A stretch of DNA of 64,000 nt, from positions 1-64,000 of the IMG/VR virus record IMGVR_UViG_3300044712_000823, one strand, 5' to 3'. This stretch comes from a virus (Duplodnaviria > Heunggongvirae > Uroviricota > Caudoviricetes). Shown here in pieces: positions 10,365-61,195 of this stretch (position 1 is the stretch's first letter; each line of letters opens with the position of its first letter). Both the position numbers and the translations under genes were made by a program. The notes under the pieces were generated by a model, which saw nothing but the letters and a program-made list of their open reading frames with translations, was not told where the DNA came from and ran no database searches.

Positions 10365-10478
10365 CCATCAGAAGTATACTAAACGTGGATCGTCCCTAAA
10401 TGCTTACTGAATTCTACAGTCAGCTTAGTATACTTCTGGTGGACCAGGCGGGAGTCGAACCCGCGTCCAGAACACTTT
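10365..10478 (-). ncRNA. tRNA-like 3' fragment (T-arm plus acceptor 3' half plus CCA) next to a 14-bp inverted repeat. Possible structured RNA.
   Basis: Minus-strand reading GCGGGUUCGACUCCCGCCUGGUCCACCA. No matching 5' acceptor strand. The inverted repeat is CAGAAGTATACTAA...TTAGTATACTTCTG. Confidence 0.25.
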
Positions 10479-10542
10479 TCTAGTTGCTTCATACAACCAT
10501 AGCCGCTAGTATAGCAGCTTTTTATTTAGTTGGCAAGCGTTT

Positions 10543-14924: not shown

Positions 14925-15512
14925 TTATAGATTAAATACGATAGAAATTCTAGGGTCAACGGATCTATTTGGCACAACTTCGTGATACAACCATGCTGGC
15001 CACATTAGTAATAGACCTGGGTATGGCTGATAATCGAAATGAGATTGTGCATACCAACTATCTTTATCTTTGACATGGAAGAAATAGTCGAAAAAATCCC
15101 GAAACGGTTGATTAGGTAGGAACCTGATGGGTGCAGAACCAGGAGGTGTCTGTAAATAGAAAATACCTGAAATTGTACACTGTGAATGTACATGCTTGGG
15201 ATGGTTACTACCTTCTTTGAAATAGTTCAAGAAGAAATATGGATTGAATTTTGCTCCGTATGGTTCAAAACCTTGTGCAGCTAAGAATTCGTGACCCTTG
15301 TTGATAATGAAATCTCCAAACCCTTGGTATTTTGGATCATTTCTAATATCGATGCCTGTACCATGAGTTGTTCTACCATTGTAGTAAAATGAATCGTTGG
15401 TTTGTTTAGTGTCACTTTCAAAATAATCTTTTACGACAGGCAGAAGAATGTCTGCCCAGTTTTTATGTTCTTCAACACCAACCACCGATGGGAATAATGA
15501 ATCAAGTCTCAT
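14925..15512 (-). CDS. 2OG-Fe(II) oxygenase.
   Basis: HVHSQCTISGIFYL...PIRF. HxD...H architecture. Confidence 0.6.
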   Translation of the reverse strand: MRLDSLFPSVVGVEEHKNWADILLPVVKDYFESDTKQTNDSFYYNGRTTHGTGIDIRNDPKYQGFGDFIINKGHEFLAAQGFEPYGAKFNPYFFLNYFKEGSNHPKHVHSQCTISGIFYLQTPPGSAPIRFLPNQPFRDFFDYFFHVKDKDSWYAQSHFDYQPYPGLLLMWPAWLYHEVVPNRSVDPRISIVFNL

Positions 15513-15771
15513 GAGGTAAAAACACTTTCAATTTTTCGTACTTAGCATCAATTGCTTTATGAATATCTTCATCTGTAATATTTATATCTGTTTCATCAAC
15601 CAATACAGAGATGAGAGCCAAAACATCACCAATTTCAGTGATTAGTGCCTGTTTGTTAGTTACGCCTTGCCATTCCGCATTCAATCCAAAACGATTGATT
15701 TTGGAAATGGCTTGAATGACTTCTGCACATTCTTCAGTCAATACACCCATAACCTGTTTAAGATCACGCAT
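15502..15771 (-). CDS. mazG: MazG-like nucleotide pyrophosphohydrolase.
   Basis: EECAEVIQA...EIGDVLA motifs. Confidence 0.7.
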   Translation of the reverse strand: MRDLKQVMGVLTEECAEVIQAISKINRFGLNAEWQGVTNKQALITEIGDVLALISVLVDETDINITDEDIHKAIDAKYEKLKVFLPHET

Positions 15772-15862
15772 AAAAATCCTTTAAATAATATAAATAGGTG
15801 TGGATCACGGTACGCCAATACCCATCCACTCTATGTCCATATTCTATAACAGGAGACACAGC

Positions 15863-23191: not shown

Positions 23192-24348
23192 ACAAAACCC
23201 ATCTTTCTTTCAATTGAATTTTTCAGTTCACGGGTATTACGCTTTTCTTTCTCAAAGAAAATATCCGCAATAGACCACTTGTCACGCTGACCATTCAGTT
23301 TAGTTCCAACTTTTACAGCCAGTTTCTCTGCCTGTTCTTGGTTCAGTTCCTTGAAATGCACAATGTCATAACAACGACCAGGACGCACCAATGCAGGATC
23401 AATATCATTGATAGACGGCAGGTTAGTTGAGAAGATAAGTTTCTTGTTGCGTGTAGTCACAAGACCGTCACCAACATTCAGAAACTTATGCATCATCGTA
23501 TTGCCCTCTTTACGTGCCTTCAGAAACATATCTGCATCCTCAAGCACCATCATAGATTTATCACCTTCGATAAACTGTGCGAACACATAATCTTTCTCCA
23601 AAACTGCTGCATCATAAGATACAATAGCAGAAGATTCCGTATGTTGCAGCATACCACGAATGAACGTGGTTTTACCAGTACCTGGCGGTCCAATCAGAAG
23701 AAGAATAGATGCATTCGACTTCATAAAATCATCATAGTAATCTGCGAGAGATTGACCATTGAGGAACGGATACATTTCTTCCACGGGCATACGCTCATGT
23801 TGTAGCGGAATCTCAATAGATGCACCATCATTTGAATACAGCCATTCGATATGGTTAGTAACGAATTGGAAATTCTCAGTGAAAAGAGATTGATATTCAT
23901 CACCAAATTCTTTATCACCAGTCAGTGTGATATTGATATGCGTAGAATGAATGCGATACTGCAACCAATTCATTCCAACATCATCGAACAGATAGCCGGT
24001 GTCCCTACCCACCTGGACGATACGGAGGTCATGTTGCAGAACAGGAAGAAACTCCACCCATTCCTTGTGTGTACAATAGATTCCAAAATCACGTGTGAAA
24101 GTTTCCAGGTTTGCAGAATTACGTGCCTCTAGAATCTTAGATTGAAAGAGATCCGTAATATCAGACAGACCAAGGAAAATTTCATTTTGTGCTTTGTTCA
24201 TAAAGTCATAACCTCTCAAAGTATAATGTTTCAGCATTTTTCGTTTTGTGTTTTTTCGCACACGAACACGCCGGCGAGTAGTTCGGTAACCATCGAGTGC
24301 AATTGCTGCATTGATCCTACGTATAATTGATTGTGCGTTTTCGCTCAT
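23188..24348 (-). CDS. AAA+ ATPase.
   Basis: Walker A (LLIGPPGTGKTT). Walker B (MMVLEDAD). Sensor region. Confidence 0.65.
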   Translation of the reverse strand: MSENAQSIIRRINAAIALDGYRTTRRRVRVRKNTKRKMLKHYTLRGYDFMNKAQNEIFLGLSDITDLFQSKILEARNSANLETFTRDFGIYCTHKEWVEFLPVLQHDLRIVQVGRDTGYLFDDVGMNWLQYRIHSTHINITLTGDKEFGDEYQSLFTENFQFVTNHIEWLYSNDGASIEIPLQHERMPVEEMYPFLNGQSLADYYDDFMKSNASILLLIGPPGTGKTTFIRGMLQHTESSAIVSYDAAVLEKDYVFAQFIEGDKSMMVLEDADMFLKARKEGNTMMHKFLNVGDGLVTTRNKKLIFSTNLPSINDIDPALVRPGRCYDIVHFKELNQEQAEKLAVKVGTKLNGQRDKWSIADIFFEKEKRNTRELKNSIERKMGFV

Positions 24349-25121
24349 TTTTTCGTTTTTAACTTTGTCAAAATTCTAGAATCAATGGCACCAATATTGT
24401 TTAAATCCTTATCTGTATAATCATTTTTCATCAGAACATACTGCATTGCTGCAATACGTGCGGATCGTTTACAGTCAGATTTTACTTGAACCCATGGGCA
24501 CATGGCAATAGAAGTTTCTCGGAACATACGTTCTTTGGCTTCTGTGTACTCATCCCATAAAGTTTGACTCGCTTTATCCACCGGGCTCAGTTTTCCAGTT
24601 TTAAGTGGATGTTTATCTCTTTGTTCAAATCTTCTGTTTTGTTCATCCCGTGTTACGGAAAACCAAAACTTAATGATGTTAATGTTTGCTTCAACCCAAA
24701 TCTTTTCAAGCTTAGGACATTCTTTGTAGAATTGGTTCGTTTGTTCTGGTGTACAGAAACCCATAACAGGCTCAACGCCTGCACGGTTATACCACGACCT
24801 ATCCCAGAAGGTGATTTCACCTGCACGTGGAAATTGATTGATATAACGCTGCCAATACCATTCTTGTTTCTCCAATTCAGTGGGTTTATCCAACGCAACG
24901 ACACGTGCGCCGCGAGGATTAATGTGTTCCATGAATCTTTTGATTGTGCCACCTTTACCTGCGGCATCACGACCTTCGAAAATAACTATGTGTTGGCTTT
25001 TGGTTTCTCGCACATGGTTTTGCCATTTGAGTAATTCAATTTGAAGCAGATACTTCTTACTTTCATACTCTTTTGTTGGCATCACCACGCGACCAGAATC
25101 TTCAAACTCAATTTTTTCCAT
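24345..25121 (-). CDS. Polyphosphate kinase 2 (PPK2).
   Basis: FEGRDAAGKGG Walker A and PPK2 lid motifs. Confidence 0.8.
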   Translation of the reverse strand: MEKIEFEDSGRVVMPTKEYESKKYLLQIELLKWQNHVRETKSQHIVIFEGRDAAGKGGTIKRFMEHINPRGARVVALDKPTELEKQEWYWQRYINQFPRAGEITFWDRSWYNRAGVEPVMGFCTPEQTNQFYKECPKLEKIWVEANINIIKFWFSVTRDEQNRRFEQRDKHPLKTGKLSPVDKASQTLWDEYTEAKERMFRETSIAMCPWVQVKSDCKRSARIAAMQYVLMKNDYTDKDLNNIGAIDSRILTKLKTKK

Positions 25122-38203: not shown

Positions 38204-38425
38204 TTATTTGGCTCCGAAATGATTTTTAATTTGAATTGCAGCGTGTTTATAGTAATTGTGATTGCCATTGGTCTTTTCGTGCATATCCAATAGTTTACCA
38301 CAACATTCATCAATAATCAACTCGGCGAATTTCTCCAATTCATAATCATAGAATTGCCAAACTGGTGGAATATGTTTTTTGGTGCCCATGGCGTGCTCGG
38401 CGAGTTCATAAATTCGTTCATTCAT
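38204..38425 (-). CDS. Small paralogous-family protein (MNERIYEL...FAELIIDEC...HFGAK).
   Basis: Family motifs. Confidence 0.5.
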   Translation of the reverse strand: MNERIYELAEHAMGTKKHIPPVWQFYDYELEKFAELIIDECCGKLLDMHEKTNGNHNYYKHAAIQIKNHFGAK

Positions 38426-38570
38426 TTACTTTTATCTTTCGAAAAATCGAATATCATACCTTTGAGAAAACCCTGCTTGAAAGTACCGCTCGGCGCAAAT
38501 AACATATAACCTATAATCAATCCCTGAAACGTACCGAGAAAGTAGAGAAAAGCCATCATAAATGCTTCCA

Positions 38571-38777
38571 TTATTCAACTCCGAAATGTTCTTTTAGATG
38601 ACGTTCTTCAATAATACCAAAACTTTCTACGCCGCGCTGATGCAAATGCATTGCACATTCCTTGATAATCAATTCGGCAAATTCTTGTGGGTCGAAATAA
38701 GTATGCAATTTCAATACATGGAGTGTATTCCTATCTCCACCGGCTTTAAAGAATAGTTCATAAATTCGTTCATTCAT
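38571..38777 (-). CDS. Small paralogous-family protein.
   Basis: N-terminal 34 aa identical to 40961..41188. Confidence 0.5.
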   Translation of the reverse strand: MNERIYELFFKAGGDRNTLHVLKLHTYFDPQEFAELIIKECAMHLHQRGVESFGIIEERHLKEHFGVE

Positions 38778-38952
38778 TTGAATAATCCTTTACTGTGGGA
38801 ATATCTTTCCATTCAGACCATTGCATATTCTTCATAGTATCTGGAAATGGACCATTACCAGCATATACGTTCATATCAATTTGCTGCCTTTGTTGCAATA
38901 CCTTTTCAGGACCATCCCAACCTTGGCGGATAAACCAACGTAATTCAACCAT
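38770..38952 (-). CDS. Hypothetical small protein.
   Basis: ORF. Confidence 0.3.
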   Translation of the reverse strand: MVELRWFIRQGWDGPEKVLQQRQQIDMNVYAGNGPFPDTMKNMQWSEWKDIPTVKDYSNE

Positions 38953-39194
38953 TATTCAACTCCAAAATGTTCTTTGATCTTAACTGCAATGTCTGCCAAG
39001 TAGTAATATAACGTGCCTTCATCATGTAACTCACTGCCTTCGCTGTGTATATGAGCAATGTTAGCACATTCCTTGACAATCAACTCTGCAAACTTTTGCT
39101 CAAATGTGCGAATATATGAAACGCCGTGAGTTTCACATTCTTTATGTGCGTAGTTTTGCGCCTGTTCGGACAATTCTTTTATCCGTTCATTCAT
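38952..39194 (-). CDS. Small paralogous-family protein.
   Basis: FAELIVKEC...HFGVE. Confidence 0.5.
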   Translation of the reverse strand: MNERIKELSEQAQNYAHKECETHGVSYIRTFEQKFAELIVKECANIAHIHSEGSELHDEGTLYYYLADIAVKIKEHFGVE

Positions 39195-39200
39195 ATTATA

Positions 39201-39494
39201 TCACCACGCCAAAGCAAAAGCATAGAAACCGTTGGTATTATCACCTCCAGTTTCAATATGAACCCGCCGATTGCCACAATCACAACGGCGATTCCCGACT
39301 TGCCAGCCTGCACATTCTATATCATTTTCACCCAAATAATCATTGCAGTTTTGACCGTCAAATTCGACAAAATCATCGCCAGATTGTGCAATAAATGCAT
39401 CAATAGCTTCTTGCTGCGTTTTGTAATTCATTATATCACATACTCCAATAAGTTTCAGACGCGGGATTGCAACACCATGGAGTATCCTCGGCAA
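39201..39494 (-). CDS. Hypothetical Cys-rich small protein.
   Basis: ORF. Start uncertain. Confidence 0.3.
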   Translation of the reverse strand: MPRILHGVAIPRLKLIGVCDIMNYKTQQEAIDAFIAQSGDDFVEFDGQNCNDYLGENDIECAGWQVGNRRCDCGNRRVHIETGGDNTNGFYAFALAW

Positions 39495-39684
39495 TGAGAA
39501 TATACTCCTGGGACATTAGATTCCGCACCAGTTTCATACCTTCAACGGGATTTTGTTTCTGCCACTCCCACAGGTCATCAATCTTATTGAAAATGGGACC
39601 GAAAGTAATTCCAGTCACATTATCAACACATTGCCAGCCGCCAGCAACCGAAAGACACGCAAGATCAATCGCGTTAGCACTCAT
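39436..39684 (-). CDS. Hypothetical small protein.
   Basis: Start set at the internal Met after the upstream stop. Confidence 0.3.
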   Translation of the reverse strand: MSANAIDLACLSVAGGWQCVDNVTGITFGPIFNKIDDLWEWQKQNPVEGMKLVRNLMSQEYILIAEDTPWCCNPASETYWSM

Positions 39685-39720
39685 TATATTCTCCAAAAGT
39701 TTCACCAAGTTAACGACCAC

Positions 39721-39915
39721 TCACATACTGCAAAGATTATCCATCTCATTAATGAAAATGAGATATGCCGAACTCATCATACAGGACAATTCACCTGCTT
39801 TATATTCAGTTTCCAGTTTCTCAATGCAATCTAGCATAGAGTTTGCGCCAATGTCAGTGCCATATGCCATGACCAAATCAATTGCTTCGCGGGTCGTCAT
39901 AATCGTTTCATTCAT
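39721..39915 (-). CDS. Hypothetical small protein.
   Basis: ORF. Confidence 0.3.
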   Translation of the reverse strand: MNETIMTTREAIDLVMAYGTDIGANSMLDCIEKLETEYKAGELSCMMSSAYLIFINEMDNLCSM

Positions 39916-40124
39916 TCTTCAACTCCAAAATGTTTACGTGCAACAAATTGAACATGCCAGCCTTTCATAGGCCCATCTTCATTAGCACCAACCCAAGGAC
40001 ATACTTCAGGGAGAAACTGTTCATATTCACGAATAATCAATTCTGCAAATCGCACGGCATCAAAACCAGTTTCAGATTCACACCGCTGCATCATTTCAAG
40101 AATAACGCCATTCGTTTCAATCAT
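39912..40124 (-). CDS. Small paralogous-family protein.
   Basis: FAELIIREY...HFGVEE. Confidence 0.45.
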   Translation of the reverse strand: MIETNGVILEMMQRCESETGFDAVRFAELIIREYEQFLPEVCPWVGANEDGPMKGWHVQFVARKHFGVEE

Positions 40125-40142
40125 TTATTCAATTCCAAAATG

Positions 40143-40349
40143 TTATTTGATACCAAATTCGAACATAATTTCGTCGGCAATATCCTCATAATCCTCAACA
40201 GATACGCCTTTATTCGAACCGAAATAAGAATAACCTTCCATTTCTCGGGTATAACCATGAATAATGGAAATAATACGGTCACGAATAGCCTTTTCCTTAT
40301 CAGAAATCTCAGTATATTCGGGAATATGAGAATACCAACGAGCAGACAT
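40143..40349 (-). CDS. Hypothetical small acidic protein.
   Basis: Ends FEFGIK. Confidence 0.35.
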   Translation of the reverse strand: MSARWYSHIPEYTEISDKEKAIRDRIISIIHGYTREMEGYSYFGSNKGVSVEDYEDIADEIMFEFGIK

Positions 40350-40363
40350 AACATTACCTCCAA

Positions 40364-40645
40364 TTACCGACGATAAACTGCAAAAGTAACTGCATCACTT
40401 TTCAGACAGGTAGAATGAGCATTAATCACGGAGTAATTAATACCACGGATAATACCTGCTTTAGTTTGAACACGATACCGACTTTCACCTTTATTATAAC
40501 GATGAGAACGGGGACCACGATAACGCACCTTAATTTTAACGCCGTCAATTGCAAACAGGCGTTTAATCTCATCAAGATATTGCATGGGGATACCATGCAT
40601 AATGGACTGACGATCAGAACCAGACTTATATTGTAGAATGTGCAT
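40364..40645 (-). CDS. Basic small protein (possible nucleic-acid binding).
   Basis: K/R-rich. Downstream of P4. Confidence 0.4.
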   Translation of the reverse strand: MHILQYKSGSDRQSIMHGIPMQYLDEIKRLFAIDGVKIKVRYRGPRSHRYNKGESRYRVQTKAGIIRGINYSVINAHSTCLKSDAVTFAVYRR

Positions 40646-40681
40646 TTTCTTTTTCCAATCAATTACCGAACCAATAAAGAC

Positions 40682-40709
40682 AGTATAACAGAACCAGGGG
40701 AAATGGCAA
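40682..40709 (-). promoter_or_regulatory. Early promoter family copy P4 (TTGCCA-16-TATACT).
   Basis: Minus-strand reading TTGCCAtttcccctggttctgtTATACT. Confidence 0.5.
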
Positions 40710-40755
40710 TGTAGATCGGAAGTAGTCCATCCGTCCGGTCAAGTTCTCGGCAGGT

Positions 40756-40983
40756 TCATTCTTCAACTCCAAAATATGTGTATACTGCTTCTTCCATACT
40801 GGGACCAAATTGCATTCCTGCTCTTGCGACTATCAAAGTTTCTTTGATAATCAACTCGGCGAATTTACTTTCAAATGCTTGAATATATGAAACACCATAT
40901 TTGTCGTTTTGTTCATGTGCATAGTTTTGTGCATCATAAGAAAGTTTTTTAATTAGTTCTTCATTCATTTTCTTCAATTCCAA
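40756..40983 (-). CDS. Small paralogous-family protein.
   Basis: FAELIIKE...YFGVEE. Confidence 0.45.
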   Translation of the reverse strand: MELKKMNEELIKKLSYDAQNYAHEQNDKYGVSYIQAFESKFAELIIKETLIVARAGMQFGPSMEEAVYTYFGVEE

Positions 40984-41188
40984 ACTCTTTTTCCATACTC
41001 AAACAAACCTCACGGGCTTGATTTCGTGTCAGTTCCTTGTGGGGATATTTGTAAACAAAGTCGGAACATTCTTTGATAATCAAATTGGCGAATTCTTGTG
41101 GGTCGAAATAAGTATGCAATTTCAATACATGGAGTGTATTCCTATCTCCACCAGCCTTAAAGAATAGTTCATAAATTCGTTCATTCAT
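40961..41188 (-). CDS. Small paralogous-family protein.
   Basis: About 100 bp near-identical to 38680–38777. Confidence 0.5.
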   Translation of the reverse strand: MNERIYELFFKAGGDRNTLHVLKLHTYFDPQEFANLIIKECSDFVYKYPHKELTRNQAREVCLSMEKEFGIEENE

Positions 41189-41191
41189 TGT

Positions 41192-41728
41192 TTAAACTCC
41201 GATATACTTAGATGCTTCAGCATGAAGACCACGGTCGCCTTTTGTCATAACTTCGAGGAGAAGCCTTTTCTCGGCGAGATAAGTCTTGGCAAACCCAGGA
41301 TCATACTGCATAATAGATTTACTATTAGAGATAAGATCAGCAAGTTTAATTGTCTGAGCTTCAGCAGGTGCATCCGCAGTATGAGCACGATCAATTGCTT
41401 TACGGTGTGCCCTATTACCGTCTTCAGGGCGACTTACATCAGTGAGCCAACCAACAAGGCGAGCAATATCAATACCAAACGCCATATGAATATCATTAAA
41501 TGTGCAACCAGTATCTTCGACAACATCATGGAGCCATGCAGCAGCAACCATCTCATGCGTAGAACCAGGAACAGAAGCCACAATACTAGCCACCTCAGCA
41601 GGGTGAACAATATAAGATTCACCTGTATATTTACGCTTTTGACCGACAGCAGCATGAGCCGCCATTGCATATACTTGCGCCTTTTGTACAATATCCATAC
41701 CAGTAAGTTCCATTGTAAAGCATTGCAT
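41192..41728 (-). CDS. HD-domain (p)ppGpp hydrolase (SpoT/Mesh1-like small alarmone hydrolase). Start uncertain.
   Basis: YIVHPAEVA...AAWLHDVVEDTG matches the RelA/SpoT HD motif. Confidence 0.65.
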   Translation of the reverse strand: MQCFTMELTGMDIVQKAQVYAMAAHAAVGQKRKYTGESYIVHPAEVASIVASVPGSTHEMVAAAWLHDVVEDTGCTFNDIHMAFGIDIARLVGWLTDVSRPEDGNRAHRKAIDRAHTADAPAEAQTIKLADLISNSKSIMQYDPGFAKTYLAEKRLLLEVMTKGDRGLHAEASKYIGV

Positions 41729-41744
41729 GATTACTCCTTATTCC

Positions 41745-41957
41745 TTATTCCGTATTATCCGCAACAAAATCAATCTCGGTATGACTCAGAATCACCCGTT
41801 CCCGCATTGCACCAAATACCTCAATAGGGTTATCCAGAACTACGGTGTGTTTAATATCACCACCATATGCAATGCGAGACAATTCTACAGTACCAGACAC
41901 AATAAACCTGTTCAGATACTTACCACGAACAAACATATTTTCAAGAACCCAACTCAT
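41745..41957 (-). CDS. Small protein; paralog of 35643..35858.
   Basis: Paralogy. Confidence 0.45.
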   Translation of the reverse strand: MSWVLENMFVRGKYLNRFIVSGTVELSRIAYGGDIKHTVVLDNPIEVFGAMRERVILSHTEIDFVADNTE

Positions 41958-42109
41958 TCTATATCCTCCAGAGATTGAATTTGAATGTCCAATTCTTCAG
42001 AGGACATATTAACCAAATCAGCGATAAAACCAACAAATTGGTCATTATCACCAATGCCAATATGCATCATTTTATCAATAATATAAACAATCTTTTCCGC
42101 ACAATTCAT
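41954..42109 (-). CDS. Small protein (51 aa).
   Basis: Start reset downstream of the P5 transcription start. AGGAG-7-ATG. Confidence 0.35.
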   Translation of the reverse strand: MNCAEKIVYIIDKMMHIGIGDNDQFVGFIADLVNMSSEELDIQIQSLEDIE

Positions 42110-42134: not shown

Positions 42135-42163
42135 AGTATAACAGAACGTAAGGAGAATGGCAA
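42135..42163 (-). promoter_or_regulatory. Early promoter family copy P5 (TTGCCA-17-TATACT).
   Basis: Minus-strand reading TTGCCAttctccttacgttctgtTATACT. Confidence 0.5.
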
Positions 42164-42546
42164 TGTAGAGCAATAGTAGTCCATAGAAGAGGTCAACTAT
42201 TGTCCAGTGTATGGGAATGCATGGGGAAGAACCAGGAATGGAATAGGAGATGATTGAAACCAAAGGTAGTAACCAGTGTAGCAAGAACCATGCGTGGATT
42301 GAAAATGAAAGTGCTATTTATTGCGTGCCTACCGTGCGTTGTCGCGGGACCTGTCGCAGGTATGGTGTAGCACCTTAGTCTTAGTTGCTGTCTGCGAGCC
42401 AGGTTTTTCCTCAACCAGCCACTCTATCACAATCCACAGCGGTTGGCAATAGGTTTCCTCTCAGAACCTCAGAGAACCATAGAGCCAGGCTATAGCATAG
42501 TGGATTTCCGACCAATAGCAAAGTAAATTTTCTTTCACCCAGCTGG

Positions 42547-42576
42547 TTGCCAAACACCAGTGCCATGTGATATAAT
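42547..42576 (+). promoter_or_regulatory. Early promoter family copy P6 (TTGCCA-18-TGaTATAAT), plus strand. Points into an ORF-poor region.
   Basis: TTGCCAaacaccagtgccatgtgaTATAAT. Confidence 0.45.
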
Positions 42577-42682
42577 GGACCAAACGTCTTCCGCTGGCGG
42601 TAGTACCTTAGTGTTACACGGTATATAACGTGCAGCCTCCACGTCCATCCCCGTGTATTGCCGTTCGAATCATTGTAGTGGA

Positions 42683-42709
42683 TTATACCAGAACCGAACG
42701 GACTGGCAA
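42683..42709 (-). promoter_or_regulatory. Early promoter family copy P7 (TTGCCA-16-TATAAT), minus strand. Points into the ORF-poor region 42.2–42.65 kb.
   Basis: Minus-strand reading TTGCCAgtccgttcggttctggTATAAT. Confidence 0.5.
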
Positions 42710-42744
42710 GTAGAGCAAAAGTTCTCTACCTGCCAGGTGGGTCA

Positions 42745-42969
42745 TTAGTCTAGCAGGACCATGTACTCCGCTGGGAAGTGGGTGCGGAACCAGTCCAGAC
42801 CCTTGCGGACGGTCTTGTAGTCTCCGAACATCTCCGAGCCACGGATGGTGTCATACACTGCCACGGCGTCAGGAGGTAGGGTCACCGACTCACCAGAGAA
42901 GGGATTGGACACCAGCACCGGTGCATCGTCCAGGATTTTGCAGGGAAAGGGAAGGGTGCGAACGTTCAT
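42745..42969 (-). CDS. Hypothetical protein (GC-rich island).
   Basis: AGGAG RBS. GC-rich codon usage. Confidence 0.45.
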   Translation of the reverse strand: MNVRTLPFPCKILDDAPVLVSNPFSGESVTLPPDAVAVYDTIRGSEMFGDYKTVRKGLDWFRTHFPAEYMVLLD

Positions 42970-42980
42970 ATTTTACTCCT

Positions 42981-43508
42981 TTATTGAACCACGTTGAAAG
43001 GACCTTTGCGGTCATATTTTTTGGTGAAGAATGCCTCCACCTTGTCAGCGGTAGGACGGAATGCCTCAGCCTTGCCACCGTACCAGCCTTCGAAGCCACC
43101 ACGGTCAGGACGCGCCACGATGGTGAAGTCCTCATACTTGAGCTTGACCTTCTTGGGAGCCTTCGGTGCTTTGGGTGCCTTGGGCTCCTTGGCCACCTTT
43201 GCAGGCTTGGTTGTCGGTTTTGCCACCGAGGGCGTTTCCGGGACAGCCTGAGGTTGGACCTGACCTTTGAGGTGAGGCATGATGGCTTGGAGCCGCTCCA
43301 CGTTGGATTGTGCATACTTGACCAGGTCCTCACCGGTCAGCCCTTTGGACGTACCTTGTACAATGTAGTCGGCGAACAGGTGAGCCTCAGCCTTGTCCTT
43401 CGGTTTGACACCGACGGACTTTGCAATGCGGAAGTGGTCGGCAGGCTTCAGGGTTTTGAGGTACTTGACCAGCTGGTCGGCAGAGGTGAAGGTGGTTTGG
43501 ATTTCCAT
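42981..43508 (-). CDS. Hypothetical protein with KAPKAPKAPK linker.
   Basis: Start at MEIQ, downstream of the P8 transcription start. Lys/Ala/Pro-rich linker. Confidence 0.45.
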   Translation of the reverse strand: MEIQTTFTSADQLVKYLKTLKPADHFRIAKSVGVKPKDKAEAHLFADYIVQGTSKGLTGEDLVKYAQSNVERLQAIMPHLKGQVQPQAVPETPSVAKPTTKPAKVAKEPKAPKAPKAPKKVKLKYEDFTIVARPDRGGFEGWYGGKAEAFRPTADKVEAFFTKKYDRKGPFNVVQ

Positions 43509-43531
43509 GTGAGTTACTTTCGAATGAGTCA

Positions 43532-43560
43532 ATTATACCAGAATTTTCAAGCCGTGGCAA
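43532..43560 (-). promoter_or_regulatory. Early promoter family copy P8 (TTGCCA-17-TATAAT).
   Basis: Minus-strand reading TTGCCAcggcttgaaaattctggTATAAT. Confidence 0.5.
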
Positions 43561-44200
43561 CCGTCAGGCGGATAATTTTCGCCATCTTACGACCGTGGGC
43601 GGGGTAGCCGATGACCGCCACGGACTTATCGTAGCAGGTACGGCAGGTCAGGCACTTGCCACCTTGGTTGTATGCTGGGCAGACGGAAACACCACCGGGC
43701 GCGTTTTCCGCGTCGGGAATGATGGTAGAGCCATGCACGCCAGGCGTATAGGAACCATCCACGGCATCGGAAGAGAACCGAACCATTACATTGTCCAGCC
43801 GTTGCATGGCTGCAATGATGGGGGCAAACTTGGGGAATTTTGCCATGCGGGTGGGCAGCCAATGCTTGGTGTTGGGCGTACGGACCATCACCTGGTAGAT
43901 TTTGGTTGCCAATTCCAGGGAGTACATATCCCCCGAATCGAACCAACGGAAGTGGGTGTCCTTGCTCAATTGAGCCACCATGGCGTCAACCCAGCCGTCC
44001 TCTTGCCATGCGGCTTTATTGTCAGCACGGACAGCCTTGACGGCGCCGAAGTGGTACATGCCCGTGGTGGCGTAGCAACCAGAGCAGGCCGCAACCAGTT
44101 GGCCGTCCTTGCCAACCGAACCGGGGCAGGTCTCAATGGCTTGGAGGGACCAGGACTTGGTGCCTAGCTTGGAGGTCTTGGAGAGTTTGTTTTTCATCAT
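43547..44200 (-). CDS. Cys-rich metal-binding protein.
   Basis: Two Cys clusters (CPGS...CSGCY and CPAYNQGGKCLTCRTCY). Confidence 0.45.
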   Translation of the reverse strand: MMKNKLSKTSKLGTKSWSLQAIETCPGSVGKDGQLVAACSGCYATTGMYHFGAVKAVRADNKAAWQEDGWVDAMVAQLSKDTHFRWFDSGDMYSLELATKIYQVMVRTPNTKHWLPTRMAKFPKFAPIIAAMQRLDNVMVRFSSDAVDGSYTPGVHGSTIIPDAENAPGGVSVCPAYNQGGKCLTCRTCYDKSVAVIGYPAHGRKMAKIIRLTVATA

Positions 44201-44247
44201 GTGGTGTATTCTACAGGTTTCCTAGGTTCTGTCAACCAGTCCTTGGA

Positions 44248-44553
44248 TTAGTTGACCGGATTGGTGGGTTTCACCGTCACCGTCCAGCTGGAGAAGGAGA
44301 GACCGACCATGGTGTAACCATGGGCTGCCAGTGCCTTGATTAGGCGCTTGGCGATAATGTTAGCCATGGCGTTCTCCGCTTCGGTGCGGTTGATTGACGG
44401 CTCATGCAGGTGCATATCACCGGCATCCTCGCAGGTGAAAGGTACAACCAGCACCTCGCCCTGGTAGGCGTCCTTGTACGGCTTAGCCGCTTTGAAAAGA
44501 ATTGCGTTTTTCATGTGATGGAGTATACCACAACCGAAGGGAATGGCAACCAA
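44248..44553 (-). CDS. Hypothetical protein. May start at 44514 (MKNAILF).
   Basis: Two tandem upstream promoters (P9, P10). Confidence 0.4.
   Translation of the reverse strand: MVAIPFGCGILHHMKNAILFKAAKPYKDAYQGEVLVVPFTCEDAGDMHLHEPSINRTEAENAMANIIAKRLIKALAAHGYTMVGLSFSSWTVTVKPTNPVN
44522..44549 (-). promoter_or_regulatory. Early promoter family copy P9 (TTGCCA-16-TATACT).
   Basis: Minus-strand reading TTGCCAttcccttcggttgtggTATACT. Confidence 0.45.
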
Positions 44554-44648
44554 CCGATCATTGGAATTTCCTATTGATCCTGCGGACCCATAGTTGCGGT
44601 TCTAACGCCCAGCCTCCACGTCCATCCCAGTGCCTTTCGAATGGTCCT

Positions 44649-44676
44649 ATTATACCAGAACCGAGGACCCCGGCAA
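44649..44676 (-). promoter_or_regulatory. Early promoter family copy P10 (TTGCCG-16-TATAAT).
   Basis: Minus-strand reading TTGCCGgggtcctcggttctggTATAAT. Confidence 0.45.
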
Positions 44677-44716
44677 CCAATACCCTACCGCTCCGCTGGA
44701 GAACTATAGTTCTACA

Positions 44717-44744
44717 TTGCCATTTCCTCCGGTTCTGTCATAAT
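44717..44744 (+). promoter_or_regulatory. Early promoter family copy P11 (TTGCCA-16-CATAAT).
   Basis: TTGCCAtttcctccggttctgtCATAAT. ATG 8 nt downstream (leaderless). Confidence 0.5.
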
Positions 44745-44751
44745 CCACTCC

Positions 44752-44949
44752 ATGATGAATAGCAAAACAAAACCCTATACCGAATCCGTTGCAACCCGTC
44801 TCCCCGCTGGCCTGACCAGTGAAAAGGACCTGTGGACTGAAATCTACAAAATCGTGGAAGCCGACCTCGGCAAGAAAAGAGCATTCTACATGATGAACTA
44901 CAGTGAGGACTTCTTTCCTGATGTAATGCACGACTACAAATACCTGTAA
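44752..44949 (+). CDS. Small protein (65 aa); likely leaderless mRNA.
   Basis: Starts ~8 nt after the -10 of P11. Confidence 0.4.
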   Translation: MMNSKTKPYTESVATRLPAGLTSEKDLWTEIYKIVEADLGKKRAFYMMNYSEDFFPDVMHDYKYL

Positions 44950-44974
44950 ACTCTTGAAAACGAAAGGTTACAAA

Positions 44975-45187
44975 ATGAATCGCATTAGCCAAAATGGTTG
45001 GACTCTCCGCCGCTCCAACAACCAGCCGGTGCTGGTGAATCAGGCAGCCATAAGCTTCCGTGGTGACATAGCCACCATTGTGGGTGGACGCCCTCCTACC
45101 CACTTTGGTTCAACCGGTAGGGTCTGGACCAAGGCTGGTGGGGAATACTTCCCTTCGGTCTTTGACCTTGAGTGGGTGAAAGACTAA
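44975..45187 (+). CDS. Small protein (70 aa).
   Basis: AAAGG-8-ATG. The ORF track extends to a TTG at 44954. Confidence 0.4.
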   Translation: MNRISQNGWTLRRSNNQPVLVNQAAISFRGDIATIVGGRPPTHFGSTGRVWTKAGGEYFPSVFDLEWVKD

Positions 45188-45215
45188 CCAATCCGGTCAA
45201 CTATCCGACGGATGG

Positions 45216-45243
45216 TTGCCAAATCCTCCAGACCTGTCATAAT
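45216..45243 (+). promoter_or_regulatory. Early promoter family copy P13 (TTGCCA-16-CATAAT).
   Basis: GGTTGCCAaatcctccagacctgtCATAATCC. Almost identical to P14 and P15. Confidence 0.55.
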
Positions 45244-45281
45244 CCATTCCATAGTAAATCAACAAAGCAAAGGAAACAAAA

Positions 45282-45509
45282 ATGTCTCAAGGCTACAATG
45301 GCTGGACCAACCGCGAAACCTGGTTGGTTAACGTTTGGTTCAATCCGGAATCCCGTGAGGATGTGGAGGATGCACGGTCCATCCTGGAGGAACAATATGA
45401 TTCCATGACCGATGGTCCCCTGAAGGACATGGTTGCCCTGTCCGAGGTGGACTGGGACCAGCTGCTGGAACACTTCGAAGAGGAAGAGGATGAGGAGGAC
45501 GAGGAATGA
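45282..45509 (+). CDS. Small acidic protein with poly-Glu/Asp C-terminal tail. Candidate DNA-mimic-like early protein.
   Basis: NGWTNRETWLVNVW N-terminus. C-terminus EEEEDEEDEE. AAAGGAAAC RBS. Confidence 0.45.
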   Translation: MSQGYNGWTNRETWLVNVWFNPESREDVEDARSILEEQYDSMTDGPLKDMVALSEVDWDQLLEHFEEEEDEEDEE

Positions 45510-45718
45510 GCGTAGTCCGTAACCGGTTGCCCGGTTCAACCGGGTCCATAACCGAGCATTGGACCTCGGAATCACCGCAAGCCATCCAGGACCTGTTCCA
45601 GCAGGAGGTGACCAACTATCCTACAGGTGGTTATGGCACCATGCTCACCGGCATCCATGCCGATCCGACCGGTCTCCTATGGCATGCCAGGTTCTATCGC
45701 ATGGCATCTTGCGATTGA
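45506..45718 (+). CDS. Small protein (70 aa).
   Basis: ATGA overlap with the upstream gene. Confidence 0.4.
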   Translation: MSVVRNRLPGSTGSITEHWTSESPQAIQDLFQQEVTNYPTGGYGTMLTGIHADPTGLLWHARFYRMASCD

Positions 45719-45738
45719 AAATTCCAATGGCAACATTC

Positions 45739-45766
45739 TTGCCATTTCCTCCAGCCCTGTCATAAT
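45739..45766 (+). promoter_or_regulatory. Early promoter family copy P12.
   Basis: TTGCCAtttcctccagccctgtCATAAT. Confidence 0.5.
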
Positions 45767-45803
45767 CCATTCCATAGTAAATCAACCGCTGAAAGGAAAG
45801 CAG

Positions 45804-45998
45804 ATGAGTGTAATCGACAACCTGATTCTGGACATCCAGAAGGACATTACCGAAGGTCGCCTGACCTTCCGTGAAATCGCCGACCTGCGCGGCATCCCGT
45901 TTGACTGGGTGGATATGGTTGCTCTGGAGATGGCTCGCCAAGGTGAGGATGATCCGGAATACCTGGACTCTGACGCATACCTGGAGACGCTGGAATGA
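45804..45998 (+). CDS. Small acidic protein (64 aa).
   Basis: AAAGGAAAG RBS. The ORF track start at 45627 runs through promoter P12. Confidence 0.4.
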   Translation: MSVIDNLILDIQKDITEGRLTFREIADLRGIPFDWVDMVALEMARQGEDDPEYLDSDAYLETLE

Positions 45999-46156
45999 AC
46001 CGCTACACCTTGATCCTTTCCAACGGTCGGATCATGGTTTTCTCGGTGCTGGCCTGCGCTGAGGTCTTCCAGCAGGCCCACGGTGGAACGCTGGTAACCC
46101 AGCAAACCGGTCAAGAATCCAAGGAACAGTTGCCAAATCTTCCAGTCCTGTCATAA
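45995..46156 (+). CDS. Small hydrophobic protein (53 aa); reads through promoter P14.
   Basis: ATGA overlap. Hand-translated. Confidence 0.25.
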   Translation: MNRYTLILSNGRIMVFSVLACAEVFQQAHGGTLVTQQTGQESKEQLPNLPVLS

Positions 46157-46157
46157 T
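46130..46157 (+). promoter_or_regulatory. Early promoter family copy P14.
   Basis: TTGCCAaatcttccagtcctgtCATAAT. Confidence 0.5.
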
Positions 46158-46189
46158 CCATTCCATAGTAAATCACTGAGGACGACCAA

Positions 46190-46450
46190 ATGCTCAAAAT
46201 GATCTGGAATGACAAATCCCTCCTGACCATGACCGGCATCGCCGTGGCTCTGGTTGTGGCTGCCGTGGCTGCAACCATTTACAATGGCAACCAGTGGAAG
46301 GAATTCAGCCAGGAACATGAGTGCAAGGTGGTTGCCAAGCATGCCGGTACCACTGGCTATGGTATGACCAGCACCGGTAAGATGGGCATGGTCACCACTT
46401 CCGCAACCACTTCCTACCTTTGCAACGATGGTGTGACCTATACCCGTTAA
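46190..46450 (+). CDS. Small membrane protein (86 aa).
   Basis: One TM helix. RBS GAGGA. Confidence 0.45.
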   Translation: MLKMIWNDKSLLTMTGIAVALVVAAVAATIYNGNQWKEFSQEHECKVVAKHAGTTGYGMTSTGKMGMVTTSATTSYLCNDGVTYTR

Positions 46451-46481
46451 CCCAGACTTCCGGTCAACTATTCCCAGATGG

Positions 46482-46509
46482 TTGCCAAATCCTCCAGACC
46501 TGTCATAAT
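46482..46509 (+). promoter_or_regulatory. Early promoter family copy P15.
   Basis: TTGCCAaatcctccagacctgtCATAAT. Confidence 0.55.
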
Positions 46510-46546
46510 CCATTCCATGATGAAAAACGAAACGAAAGGAAACCAG

Positions 46547-46813
46547 ATGACTTACACCCCCGCCCAAGCGGCTGCCCTCCGTCACGCTGAAGTGACCCTG
46601 ACTCGCATGGCTCAGGAAGCCGCCCTCCGCTACGCCGAGGCTCTGGTCAAGTACCATGCCACCCGTCGCTTCGAAAAGTCTGAGGTGGCCTCTGAGCGCC
46701 AGATGGCACGGGATGCATGGACCATGGTCCTCATCACTGCTGAGGATGTGAACCAAGCCGCTGAGTGCCAGGCTCAGCTCACCGGCAACCAAATTGTGAA
46801 GGAGCTTGCATAA
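46547..46813 (+). CDS. Small alpha-helical protein (88 aa). Alternative leaderless start at 46517.
   Basis: AAAGGAAACCAG-ATG. Confidence 0.4.
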   Translation: MTYTPAQAAALRHAEVTLTRMAQEAALRYAEALVKYHATRRFEKSEVASERQMARDAWTMVLITAEDVNQAAECQAQLTGNQIVKELA

Positions 46814-46896
46814 TGAAAACTTTCGCAGTAGAACTGATCCAGGCAGCCATCCTGGCCACCCTTTTCTTCGGTCCCCTCTTCCTCTACATCCTCTGA
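46813..46896 (+). CDS. Hydrophobic micro-protein (27 aa).
   Basis: GAAGGAG-8-ATG. Single TM. Confidence 0.3.
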   Translation: MKTFAVELIQAAILATLFFGPLFLYIL

Positions 46897-46907
46897 AAGG
46901 TACTACC

Positions 46908-47117
46908 ATGGCAGCAACAGTCATTCCGGTTAAGGTCACGGACCGTAGGGTCCAGGAGCAATATGTGGTGGATGGTGCTCTGGTTACAATTTGCAAGCCA
47001 GCCAAGGCTCGGAAGTCGGAGAGGACTTGGAGAGGTGGCAGTAAGTGGTCAGTGGCTGGCTTGGGTGGTAAGGCACTGAGCCTGCGGAATGGCGGGCTGG
47101 CTAAGGCTAAAGGCTAA
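46908..47117 (+). CDS. Small basic protein (69 aa).
   Basis: GAAAGG-7-ATG. Confidence 0.4.
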   Translation: MAATVIPVKVTDRRVQEQYVVDGALVTICKPAKARKSERTWRGGSKWSVAGLGGKALSLRNGGLAKAKG

Positions 47118-47131
47118 GCCTAACACATTGG

Positions 47132-47160
47132 TACTAAAATTTGGACGGCAGTGTCCAAAA
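47132..47160 (-). terminator. Putative minus-strand terminator.
   Basis: UUGGAC-N6-GUCCAA hairpin followed by AUUUUAG. Confidence 0.35.
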
Positions 47161-47260
47161 ATTAAACCAATGTAAGTAATTTTCGCCTATGGCCCAAACT
47201 CGATTTTTCTGTTTTTTATTTTCTGGGGCCAAAACGCATTTTTCGAAATTTAGCACACCT

Positions 47261-47749
47261 CTAAATTTTTTCTCCGGACTCCAGCAGGTTTTCGAATTTT
47301 CCTGGAGGACTCTCCTGCGTATACTTTACATTGTTTAGCACGGGTCTGCCGTTCTCTGTCTTTCTGCACCACGGTATGTCTGTACGTACCACATAGGTCC
47401 ACTTATTGTAGTGCTGCATGAAGCTAATCATGTGCTGCGTACCTCTGGACTCTCCATCCCAAAATGCAATGAGTCCGTCTGCATAGACACCCATCTCTGC
47501 ATTCCGCATAGGACCCGCTTTCTTACCGTGGCGCTTCCAGTCGGCAGGAAAGAGCTTGACTGGAATGTTGCGCTCCTCTGCCCAACGTTCACCCAAGGAG
47601 TCAGCGCCTGCTGCACGGCCAGAAACAACCTCAGTAATGTGCAACCACGGTGGTATCGTTGCAAGGTAAGCCCTCAAATAATCATAATCATTAAAATCTC
47701 TGGATCCTGCAATGATTACTCTGCTCCGGCTGCTGCTTCTGCTGCTCAT
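47261..47749 (-). CDS. SLOG-superfamily (DprA/LOG-like) Rossmann nucleotide-binding protein.
   Basis: IIAGSRDF...VVSGRAAGAD...WDGESRGT motifs. Confidence 0.45.
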   Translation of the reverse strand: MSSRSSSRSRVIIAGSRDFNDYDYLRAYLATIPPWLHITEVVSGRAAGADSLGERWAEERNIPVKLFPADWKRHGKKAGPMRNAEMGVYADGLIAFWDGESRGTQHMISFMQHYNKWTYVVRTDIPWCRKTENGRPVLNNVKYTQESPPGKFENLLESGEKI

Positions 47750-47943
47750 TCTGGAATCATTCCCTGTGACTTAGCATAATAATAAATTGCGATACCGATG
47801 AGGTACAACACAACCTGCATCCAAAGACCGCGTGGGTTACCCCAGCTTCGGATGTTCCAAAGTACCCAAAGCATACCCAGTGCGAAACTGAATAGGTTTA
47901 GATGGAACGGGGAAATCGTCAGGAAATTCTCTAGTGTGTACAT
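47746..47943 (-). CDS. Small membrane protein.
   Basis: Two TM helices. Confidence 0.35.
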   Translation of the reverse strand: MYTLENFLTISPFHLNLFSFALGMLWVLWNIRSWGNPRGLWMQVVLYLIGIAIYYYAKSQGMIPE

Positions 47944-48348: not shown

Positions 48349-48936
48349 CTAAGCACTAGGTGGTGAGTTGTCTTTTCCATACATTAACATCATTGCGTCA
48401 AAAATACAATCGTCAATCGGATTGTGCTTGGTGATATGGAGCTTGGAATCAAAGCCAGGATAGTCCACATCAGTGTATCCACGTTCAGTATTATAGAAGA
48501 TATCGATTGCAGTACGTACATCGCGCCAACGAGCGTAAGGGAAGATTGGATCAAGTCCCAACTGTTCTTCAATCGAATCTAACACAAGTTGATCTAGGTT
48601 ACCACGTGCCCATACATGGGACATTGGTTCCTTGAATTGGGAAGCCCATTCGCGCATACGTTCATATCCGACTTCAAACGACACATCTTCATCGGATGGG
48701 CGGAAGGATTTGTTTTTAACATTCGTGCATTGCTTCTTCCACCATTCAATCGTGGAAGGTGACATAGACCGTTTCAGGCGCTTGCGTTGTTCTTCTACAT
48801 CAAACTTCGCAAAGAATGCATTTGCGCGAAGGTCTTCATGTGAGGGTTTTTTGAGTGGATCAAAATGCACACATGCCATGGAAAGAATAATCGCATTAGA
48901 TTCTTTCCCTAGCGTTTCAACATCAAATACAAACAT
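48349..48936 (-). CDS. dexA: Exonuclease A (DexA).
   Basis: Similarity to T4 DexA (STIEWWKKQ...PSDEDVS). Confidence 0.75.
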   Translation of the reverse strand: MFVFDVETLGKESNAIILSMACVHFDPLKKPSHEDLRANAFFAKFDVEEQRKRLKRSMSPSTIEWWKKQCTNVKNKSFRPSDEDVSFEVGYERMREWASQFKEPMSHVWARGNLDQLVLDSIEEQLGLDPIFPYARWRDVRTAIDIFYNTERGYTDVDYPGFDSKLHITKHNPIDDCIFDAMMLMYGKDNSPPSA

Positions 48937-60836: not shown

Positions 60837-60847
60837 TTTTTACCTTA

Positions 60848-61195
60848 TTATTTTACAAATGGCTTCAAGTTAGGTGGTGACCAGCCTTCTGGTTTCAAAA
60901 CCTTGCCATTTTCATTTTTTATTACTTTACCTGTAGTCGAATCAATTTTAGAAAGATTTGAACGTGCAACTTCCGCCCATGCACCATCAACATCATAACC
61001 CTTCATGTAGCAATAACCTAAAATTACCCAAATCAAATCCATACAACCATCAAGTTGTCCTTCTTCATCATTATGCAGATAAGCTATAACAAACTCATCA
61101 AATTCTTCACGAATGAGATTCTTATATAGTAGAACGTTTTTTTCGTTTCGTTCTTGGTCACATGCTTCAATAAATTTTACAACATCATTATTCAC
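60848..61195 (-). CDS. MazG/HisE-like all-alpha NTP pyrophosphohydrolase.
   Basis: EEFDEF...D.LIWVILGY pattern. Confidence 0.45.
   Translation of the reverse strand: MNNDVVKFIEACDQERNEKNVLLYKNLIREEFDEFVIAYLHNDEEGQLDGCMDLIWVILGYCYMKGYDVDGAWAEVARSNLSKIDSTTGKVIKNENGKVLKPEGWSPPNLKPFVK

Follow-up and report, generated by a model that had tools for sequence, protein, structure and literature searches.

An apparently long-resident small alarmone hydrolase gene in an uncultured T4-like phage, and its possible role in erasing 3'-pyrophosphates

The hydrolase gene and its transcription unit

The window treated here is a 64,000-nucleotide stretch of viral DNA (positions 1 to 64,000 of IMG/VR record IMGVR_UViG_3300044712_000823), and its subject is a gene at 41192..41728 on the minus strand whose product, judged from its sequence, is with very little doubt a stand-alone RelA/SpoT-type hydrolase, i.e. 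a small alarmone hydrolase (SAH). The source phage is a T4-like myovirus: the window encodes rIIA, rIIB, a CobS-like ATPase, primase, ThyX and ribonucleotide reductase (RNR), and a Logan assembly of the same phage has Pfam matches to T4 gp2, gp19, baseplate, gp32 and gp59 proteins. The phage has no close cultured relative (its rIIA is at most 46% identical to any), and no DNA nearly identical to the 40.5-42.5 kb segment was found in cultured phages.

The protein carries HPAEVA at residues 42-47 and AAWLHDVVEDT at residues 63-73, both strings being found as an earlier note on this DNA had read them in the open reading frame (ORF) with exactly these coordinates, and the stand-alone SAH proposed there is borne out by profile searches. 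Pfam HD_4 (PF13328) is matched at 55.6 bits (E=6.5e-15, cutoff 27.2) and PHROG 990, "metal-dependent phosphohydrolase", at E=2.8e-39, while the match to NCBIfam TIGR00691 spoT_relA (E=2.4e-21) covers only the N-terminal hydrolase positions 2-123 of 687; Pfam matches are to HD_4/HD only, with no synthetase or regulatory domains. The public gene call for the SAH (P0001) has 173 aa and begins at M6. The invariance of M1, F4 and T5 in 30 orthologues supports the ATG that yields 178 aa as the probable start.

The SAH gene is embedded in a tightly packed unit, all on the minus strand:

42135..42206, minus: PeSL-like element c42165 (PeSL, early-promoter stem-loop); hairpin 42166..42206, -35 box TTGCCA 42163..42158, 17-nt spacer, -10 box TATACT 42140..42135
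41954..42109, minus: unit ORF 1, 51 aa, without family assignment; its stop codon and the start codon of ORF 2 overlap in ATGA
41745..41957, minus: unit ORF 2, 70 aa, directly upstream of the SAH gene; no PHROG match
41734..41739, minus: Shine-Dalgarno sequence AAGGAG of the SAH gene, read from the sequence, 5 nt before the ATG at 41728
41192..41728, minus: unit ORF 3, the SAH gene, third of five genes; 178 aa, ATG start, RelA/SpoT-family HD hydrolase domain only
40961..41188, minus: unit ORF 4, 75 aa, begins 3 nt past the SAH stop; member of a six-member paralogue family
40756..40983, minus: unit ORF 5, 75 aa, same paralogue family as ORF 4
40682..40709, minus: PeSL-like copy c40710, TTGCCA-16 nt-TATACT; downstream bound of the ~1.45 kb SAH cassette

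PeSLs have an anatomy of stem-loop, sigma70-like early promoter, ribosome-binding site and start codon, in that order (PMC4122927, PMC2839356). In c42165 the promoter scan gives 10 of 12 matches with a TG extension, the hairpin has a predicted energy of -11.7 kcal/mol (z=-3.5), and on the 3' side come a ribosome-binding site (AGGAG) and then the beginning of unit ORF 1. At least six aligned minus-strand copies of this ~60-nt element, with TTGCCA-N16/17-TATAMT, lie between 35.9 and 42.7 kb, so that the placement of the SAH gene in a PeSL-rich hyperplastic region of a T4-like phage, also made in the earlier note, holds. The hairpin directly upstream of the promoter is significant in three of the six copies (z=-3.5, -2.8 and -2.2) and not in the other three, c40710 among them (z=-0.56). 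The spacing between c42165 and c40710 is 1453-1454 nt. On sequence grounds c42165 is the likely early promoter of the unit, and the SAH would be expressed early. Rfam gave no structured RNA near the SAH gene, its only match being a tmRNA at about 10.2-10.5 kb.

The stretch 38204-41188 of the minus strand contains six short paralogues of 68-80 aa with the pattern MNERIYEL...FAELIIKEC...HFGVE(E); none has a PHROG match, and two of them directly follow the SAH gene. A 124-nt direct repeat (38655-38778 versus 41066-41189) is 95% identical, as against 70-78% for other paralogue pairs, and ends exactly at the start codon of ORF 4, just downstream of the SAH gene, which indicates probable recent gene conversion or recombination at the 3' boundary of the SAH gene.

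Active site, conservation and predicted fold

A search of the sequences of solved structures (E<=0.001) matched the SAH at E=1e-13 to 1e-7, the best matches being Rel/RelSeq hydrolase domains (E about 1e-13), followed by Lmo0812 and the fly and human Mesh1 proteins (E about 1e-11), with bacterial SAHs also matched. The sequence alignment with RelSeq (1vj7), whose chain numbering was checked against the alignment, pairs the following residues:

SAH H42 with RelSeq H53: metal ligand
SAH H67-D68 with RelSeq H77-D78: metal ligands
SAH E71-D72 with RelSeq E81-D82: catalytic ED pair
SAH D131 with RelSeq D144: metal ligand
SAH N135 with RelSeq N148
SAH R32-K33 with RelSeq R44-K45

These RelSeq positions are taken here to be the metal ligands and catalytic residues established for the hydrolase family of the RelA/SpoT homologues (RSH). 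Among 60 diverse relatives that are 46-66% identical to the SAH, H25, R32, Y39, H42, H67, D68, E71, D72, D131 and N135 are invariant and K33 is conserved in at least 90%. The set of 30 orthologues shows the key residues unchanged as well. The metal-binding His and Asp residues, whose absence the earlier note had named as the observation that would undo the assignment, are thus all in place (H42, H67, D68 and D131), and with its complete active site the SAH is apparently an active enzyme. Likewise invariant are G104, R106 and R109 of a clade motif, DGNRAxRK, which in the longer form PEDGNRAxRK spans residues 101-110 (about 41399-41428 in the window) and for which the alignment shows no RelSeq counterpart; a function in binding phosphate or RNA is possible. 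The motif occurs also in PaSpo (SSU5_099) of Salmonella phage SSU5, which is the closest CHARACTERISED relative of the SAH (49% identity over residues 11-164, E=1e-44); the SAH is called PaSpo-like here in the sense of similarity to this type protein of a subfamily in the classification of Jimmy et al. 2020.

The AlphaFold2 model of the SAH is all-helical (pLDDT 85.7, pTM 0.80) and aligns to Mesh1/SAH structures over about 170 of its 178 residues. The top full-length Foldseek matches are stand-alone SAHs, with template modelling (TM) scores of 0.77 for Mesh1 and 0.73-0.74 for the P. aeruginosa SAH, and with C. glutamicum RelH and a Leptospira SAH as further full-length matches; Rel/SpoT hydrolase domains and then the (p)ppApp hydrolase Aph1 come after these in the ranking. 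Since the top structural match (TM 0.77) is specifically the human Mesh1-NADPH complex, and SAH promiscuity is documented (PMC9765508), the substrate of the SAH might be a metabolite other than an alarmone, just as NADPH is one of human MESH1, and its effect a change in cofactor pools rather than in signalling or tRNA. This is highly improbable: identity to Mesh1 is 24-26%, as against 49% to PaSpo, and no feature of the gene context points to NAD(P) metabolism.

Age of the gene and the adjoining GC-rich island

The SAH gene had been described in the earlier note as slightly GC-richer than its surroundings and, for that reason, as recently acquired. The first statement is numerically true (GC 0.436, against 0.380 +/- 0.035 for 56 other genes), but the gene is not an outlier (z=1.6; two of the 56 are as high). 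Its GC at third codon positions (GC3), 0.274, lies below the genome mean of 0.330 and its GC at first positions is 0.615; the raised GC arises because the protein is rich in Ala, Gly, Val, Asp and Glu, with the excess at codon position 1, and not from foreign codon usage. In all 89 orthologue loci compared, the SAH gene is GC-richer than its flanks (mean 0.495 versus 0.411), which makes the difference a trait of the gene itself. Against 50 orthologues the SAH has a mean identity of 82% in amino acids and 71% in nucleotides, with synonymous sites saturated (mean proportion of synonymous differences, pS, 0.78), and the median ratio of nonsynonymous to synonymous substitution rates (dN/dS) is 0.06 over the 12 pairs with finite dS. 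Recent acquisition was consequently rejected on GC3, orthologue GC, saturated synonymous sites and dN/dS, and by these sequence measures the SAH gene qualifies as an old, long-resident gene of the T4-like lineage under strong purifying selection.

The same data bear on the proposal that the gene is a recently acquired or decaying passenger with no role. Its location in a hyperplastic region, directly beside a foreign GC-rich island, would be in keeping with this, as would the absence from the window of the partner genes seen beside the SAH in its relatives (see below). The proposal is nevertheless largely refuted, and its residual likelihood is slight, by a GC3 that is native or lower, an intact ORF with a strong ribosome-binding site, the retention of all catalytic residues, the dN/dS of about 0.06, and a nucleotide identity of about 70% to any sampled orthologue at saturated synonymous sites.

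The acquired block is the neighbouring island, which directly abuts the SAH transcription unit:

42250-47900, some ORFs on the opposite strand: GC-rich island, 5.5 kb, 52-57% GC in a 38.5% GC genome; ORF GC3 0.65-0.73
43547..44200: GP88-family protein
45282..45509: DUF7249 protein
47261..47749: YspA/SLOG protein; several products of no known family also lie in the island

By composition the island, and not the SAH gene, is clearly a foreign, unameliorated block that would have been acquired horizontally, and the analysis thus corrects the inference of recent acquisition for the SAH gene. Inside the island (44717-46537) are five plus-strand copies of a 56-73 nt repeat with TTGCCA-N17-CATAAT, in which the -35 flavour is the same as in the phage's own minus-strand PeSL-like repeats; this suggests that the island may have come from a related GC-richer phage by promoter-cassette recombination. 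Just past the island, at 48349-48936 on the minus strand, is a gene for a protein with an Rv2179c-like 3'-5' exoribonuclease domain (PF16473, E=1.7e-17), another RNA-end enzyme.

SAH neighbourhoods in related phages

Homologues of the SAH are numerous: a representative library gives 19,572 clusters at E<=1e-3, of which 753 reach E<=1e-30, there are 242 cultured-phage records with a homologue and 271 IMG/VR stretches with a relative, and hundreds of metagenomic proteins are 82-88% identical to the SAH. The fusion partners of ten longer homologues were mostly uninformative. In one close homologue (P0177, 1078 aa) the PaSpo-like HD_4 domain is joined by fusion to transglutaminase and ART-PolyVal domains in a polyvalent protein, which gives a slight extra hint of counter-defence, and another (P0198, 810 aa) has HD_4 after an mCpol/Cas10-palm-like region that is a weak match below the Pfam cutoff.

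No synteny was found around the SAH gene in related contigs, the SAH alone being strongly conserved within +/-10 kb flanks. Four kinds of neighbour recur in the related uncultured phages: a cysteine phosphatase (weak Pfam matches to Tc-R-P/DSPc); a Pnk-like AAA_33 P-loop kinase of about 154 aa that also matches the PHROG "polynucleotide kinase" and has no phosphatase domain; a 180-aa calcineurin-type metallophosphoesterase, blank in Pfam and identified via PDB 1xm7 (E=1e-12) and PHROG 547; and an RNA ligase 1 (Rnl1) of the T4 gp63 type. Their occurrence was counted in 62 non-redundant loci and, for proximity to the SAH gene, in the subset of 21 with at least 4 kb on both sides of it:

Metallophosphoesterase: 54 of 62 loci anywhere, 18 of 21 within 4 kb of the SAH gene
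Pnk-like AAA_33 kinase: 49 of 62 anywhere, 16 of 21 within 4 kb
Cysteine phosphatase: 45 of 62 anywhere, 15 of 21 within 4 kb
RNA ligase 1: 35 of 62 anywhere, 12 of 21 within 4 kb

At least one partner lies within 4 kb of the SAH gene in 19 of the 21 loci, kinase, esterase and ligase occur together in nine, and the partners within 4 kb are all on the SAH strand. Because the cluster has been kept through at least ten different gene orders, the proximity of the SAH and repair genes argues for selection rather than frozen synteny. A scan of 22 loci for tRNA genes showed them beside the cluster, on its strand, in 18, with arrays of 24-30 tRNAs in six of these. Arrays of this size (24-30 tRNAs within 10 kb) lie directly upstream of the phosphatase-kinase-esterase-SAH-ligase cluster in L003, L014, L047, L064, L068, L085 and other loci, and in locus L038 a related tmRNA with the tag ANDEAFLMAA is found 3.7 kb from the SAH gene.

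Two readings of these clusters differ in what they ask of the SAH. HD domains act as the phosphatase half in some bacterial HD-Pnk enzymes, and the location of the SAH in relatives between a kinase-only Pnk-like protein (about 154 aa) and Rnl1 could accordingly mean that it is an RNA end-healing esterase, i.e. that it removes 2',3'-cyclic phosphate or 3'-phosphate as the phosphatase half of a Pnk/Rnl1 pathway. This is improbable, since the same clusters already hold a calcineurin-type metallophosphoesterase able to do the job, the HD_4 match and the ED motif place the SAH specifically among RSH hydrolases rather than generic HD proteins, and the SAH of the window has no kinase or ligase partner within the 64 kb. 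The other reading, which deserves to be entertained but is less likely than not, takes the SAH of this clade to be primarily not an alarmone enzyme but a 3'-de-pyrophosphorylase, one arm of a tRNA repair module for several kinds of lesion that is encoded beside the phage tRNA array. The other arms of the module would be the Pnk-like kinase, the metallophosphoesterase, the cysteine phosphatase and Rnl1, and jointly these would undo anticodon-nuclease cuts and the pyrophosphorylation of tRNA CCA ends by toxic small alarmone synthetases (toxSAS); in the phage of the window only the SAH would have been kept, the rest of the module having been shed or else carried elsewhere by PeSL shuffling.

Nucleotide-metabolism genes of the window

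The earlier note had grouped the SAH with three further genes, all of which are present and have Pfam matches to the families named there:

15502..15771, minus: MazG-family NTP pyrophosphohydrolase, 89 aa; PF03819 E=1.7e-7, PHROG 4856 E=3.2e-20; overlaps a 2OG-Fe(II) oxygenase gene
24345..25121, minus: PPK2 polyphosphate kinase, 258 aa; PF03976 E=3.7e-83; overlaps an AAA ATPase gene; about 16 kb from the SAH gene, past rIIA/rIIB
60848..61195, minus: PRA-PH/MazG-like all-alpha NTP pyrophosphatase, 115 aa; PF01503 E=7.2e-9, PHROG 671 E=1.8e-33

From this grouping follows the proposal that the SAH is a dedicated (p)ppGpp hydrolase by which the phage suppresses the stringent response of its host, and that it forms a nucleotide-pool toolkit together with PPK2, MazG and the other MazG-like enzyme. 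The founding activity of the family, as in Rel/SpoT and Mesh1, is (p)ppGpp hydrolysis, the SAH retains the residues lining the RelSeq active site, and the three other genes are real; moreover, a broad-specificity SAH would cleave (p)ppGpp too, so that the proposal is compatible with, and does not exclude, the broader role preferred below. However, the coherence of the toolkit does not survive inspection of the map. The MazG, PPK2, SAH and PRA-PH genes lie at 15.5, 24.3, 41.2 and 60.8 kb, so that by these coordinates the others are 17-26 kb from the SAH gene, with rIIA/rIIB, many other genes and promoter repeats in between, and they belong to separate transcription units. An 8-nt overlap with thyX (Thy1 E=1.1e-43) and a gap of 12 nt between its end and the RNR large-subunit gene suggest a part in dNTP metabolism for the PRA-PH gene; most likely this pyrophosphatase serves dNTP synthesis, in which it probably provides dUMP or dCMP instead of cleaving alarmones. 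The only phage MazG that has been tested biochemically cleaves dNTPs and cannot hydrolyse the magic-spot nucleotides (p)ppGpp (PMC6850273). In addition, what is known of the nearest characterised homologue, PaSpo, is that it neutralises toxSAS and de-pyrophosphorylates tRNA (PMC7229694, PMC11245113), and the neighbours in relatives are RNA-end enzymes and tRNAs, not nucleotide-pool genes. The grouping is thematic and not a genetic module, and a dedicated role against the stringent response is doubtful; what stands of the claim is that (p)ppGpp hydrolysis is compatible with the enzyme, as one of several possible roles.

The PRA-PH gene is part of a tight nucleotide-metabolism operon at 59046-62839 on the minus strand, composed of a primase-like gene, ThyX, the PRA-PH/MazG-like gene and the RNR large subunit. 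A plus-strand ORF of 235 aa (15800-16507) separates the MazG gene from the minus-strand genes that follow; it has an HNH-like EIHHIDGNPNNNDIKNL motif and repeated GGE.. segments and, by its sequence, looks like a homing endonuclease. The window also holds one structured RNA gene that bears on the host:

10158-10550, minus: tmRNA (ARAGORN, permuted), tag ANDEKFALAA; Rfam beta_tmRNA RF01850 at 136 bits, against a gathering threshold of 84

Since this tmRNA is of the betaproteobacterial type, the host is probably a betaproteobacterium.

Proposed role of the SAH

In the mechanism proposed here, a Mn2+ ion would be held by H42, H67, D68 and D131 and act with the E71-D72 pair, and the enzyme, by analogy with its family, would hydrolyse pyrophosphate esterified to a ribose 3'-OH. 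The SAH would be expressed as the third of five genes from the sigma70-like early promoter of its PeSL-like cassette and would serve as a broad 3'-pyrophosphate eraser that shields the infection from RSH-type pyrophosphokinases of the host. Its main targets would be the products of toxSAS used as anti-phage defence: it would take the pyrophosphate off tRNA CCA-3' ends again and break down (pp)pApp, and could in addition remove (p)ppGpp, a compatible further activity. Most of the related phages would use the gene as part of a tRNA-maintenance cluster; in the window it stands alone.

The basis for this proposal is the closest characterised homologue together with the neighbourhoods in relatives. 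In the work of Jimmy et al. (PMC7229694 Table 1) all five toxSAS tested were neutralised both by PaSpo and by PbcSpo of phage PVP-SE1. PaSpo also takes pyrophosphate off tRNA 3' ends (PMC11245113), and the SAHs MESH1 and ATfaRel restored aminoacylation of CCA-pyrophosphorylated tRNA in vitro (Kurata et al., bioRxiv 10.1101/2021.04.30.441581). PbcSpo itself was not located in the first 50 kb of phage PVP-SE1.

Several points weigh against the proposal. The substrate preference (G, A or tRNA) is not readable from the SAH sequence, from which identity and probable activity follow; the toxSAS neutralisation by PaSpo comes from heterologous co-expression and not from infection (PMC7229694); and the presence of toxSAS in the host is only presumed. 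The association evidence comes from relatives: a tblastn search at E<=10 gave no kinase, esterase, ligase or phosphatase partner homologue in the 64 kb window, which is part of an 88.7 kb source contig, no tRNA gene was found in the window, and 2.7 kb beyond the window ends, in short Logan contigs, contain no repair genes. The partners may have been lost or relocated in this phage. Repair neighbours were also not seen around the distant SAH homologues of cultured phages SSU5, D6, pVa-21 and DLP_6, so that the association is clade-specific, and clustering inside one phage clade can partly reflect shared ancestry.

When these points are set against the evidence, an active, PaSpo-like, long-resident SAH that acts as a broad 3'-pyrophosphate eraser against RSH-type enzymes is the best explanation of the data as a whole, and is favoured to a modest degree. 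That counter-defence or tRNA 3'-end maintenance is specifically its main role is, on the homologue and neighbourhood analysis, a matter of roughly equal chances.

The lead that goes beyond what is known is the conserved clustering of the SAH with RNA end-healing and sealing enzymes and tRNA arrays, and it concerns the relatives more than the window. If the link within the cluster is functional, phage tRNA repair would be wider than the classical T4 Pnk/Rnl1 answer to anticodon nucleases, in that it would also reverse tRNA 3'-pyrophosphorylation by defence toxins of the CapRel/FaRel2 type. This would provide a natural in vivo role for the tRNA-dephosphorylating activity of SAHs, the evidence for which has so far come from in vitro and co-expression work only.

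Comparison with known systems

The repair genes of the relatives share with T4 Pnk plus Rnl1 repair and with bacterial Pnkp-type systems a Pnk-like kinase, a calcineurin-type phosphoesterase, a gp63-type ligase and tRNA arrays; they differ in that an RSH-type 3'-pyrophosphohydrolase is not a described component of those systems in the literature searched, in which no publication was found that joins "alarmone hydrolase", "RNA ligase" and "polynucleotide kinase".

Long RSH enzymes (RelSeq, SpoT, Rel) share the Mn2+ ligands and ED pair with the SAH residue for residue, but the SAH lacks the synthetase, TGS and ACT domains and thus their reciprocal regulation. Mesh1 and the bacterial SAHs (P. aeruginosa SAH, C. 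glutamicum RelH, Leptospira SAH) share its single domain, full-length fold (TM 0.73-0.77) and H...HD...ED...D...N active site; unlike it they are cellular enzymes, with 22-26% identity, and the invariant G104/R106/R109 motif is the window clade's own. Aph1 of a Bacteroides caccae prophage (PDB 7smg), a (p)ppApp-specific hydrolase that provides immunity against a pyrophosphokinase toxin (PMC10083569), is likewise phage-associated and has a related fold (Foldseek E=1.5e-4). It is not among the sequence matches at E<=0.001, however, and its structural match is shorter (TM-score TMq about 0.6); its gene adjoins that of the cognate toxin, whereas the SAH gene of the window has no adjoining synthetase toxin.

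The nearest counterpart is PaSpo of SSU5, also a phage-encoded stand-alone RSH hydrolase domain with the same catalytic residues and the PEDGNR motif, whose gene is also surrounded by small ORFs of no known function. PaSpo differs in being longer (213 aa, with a longer C-terminus, versus 178 aa) and in coming from a temperate plasmid-like Salmonella siphophage rather than a T4-like myovirus, and its activities are experimental, whereas the SAH of the window is known from sequence alone. Phage-encoded SAHs are thus already known, two of them tested, and the gene described here adds a further member, from an uncultured T4-like lineage, to a partly characterised kind of phage enzyme.

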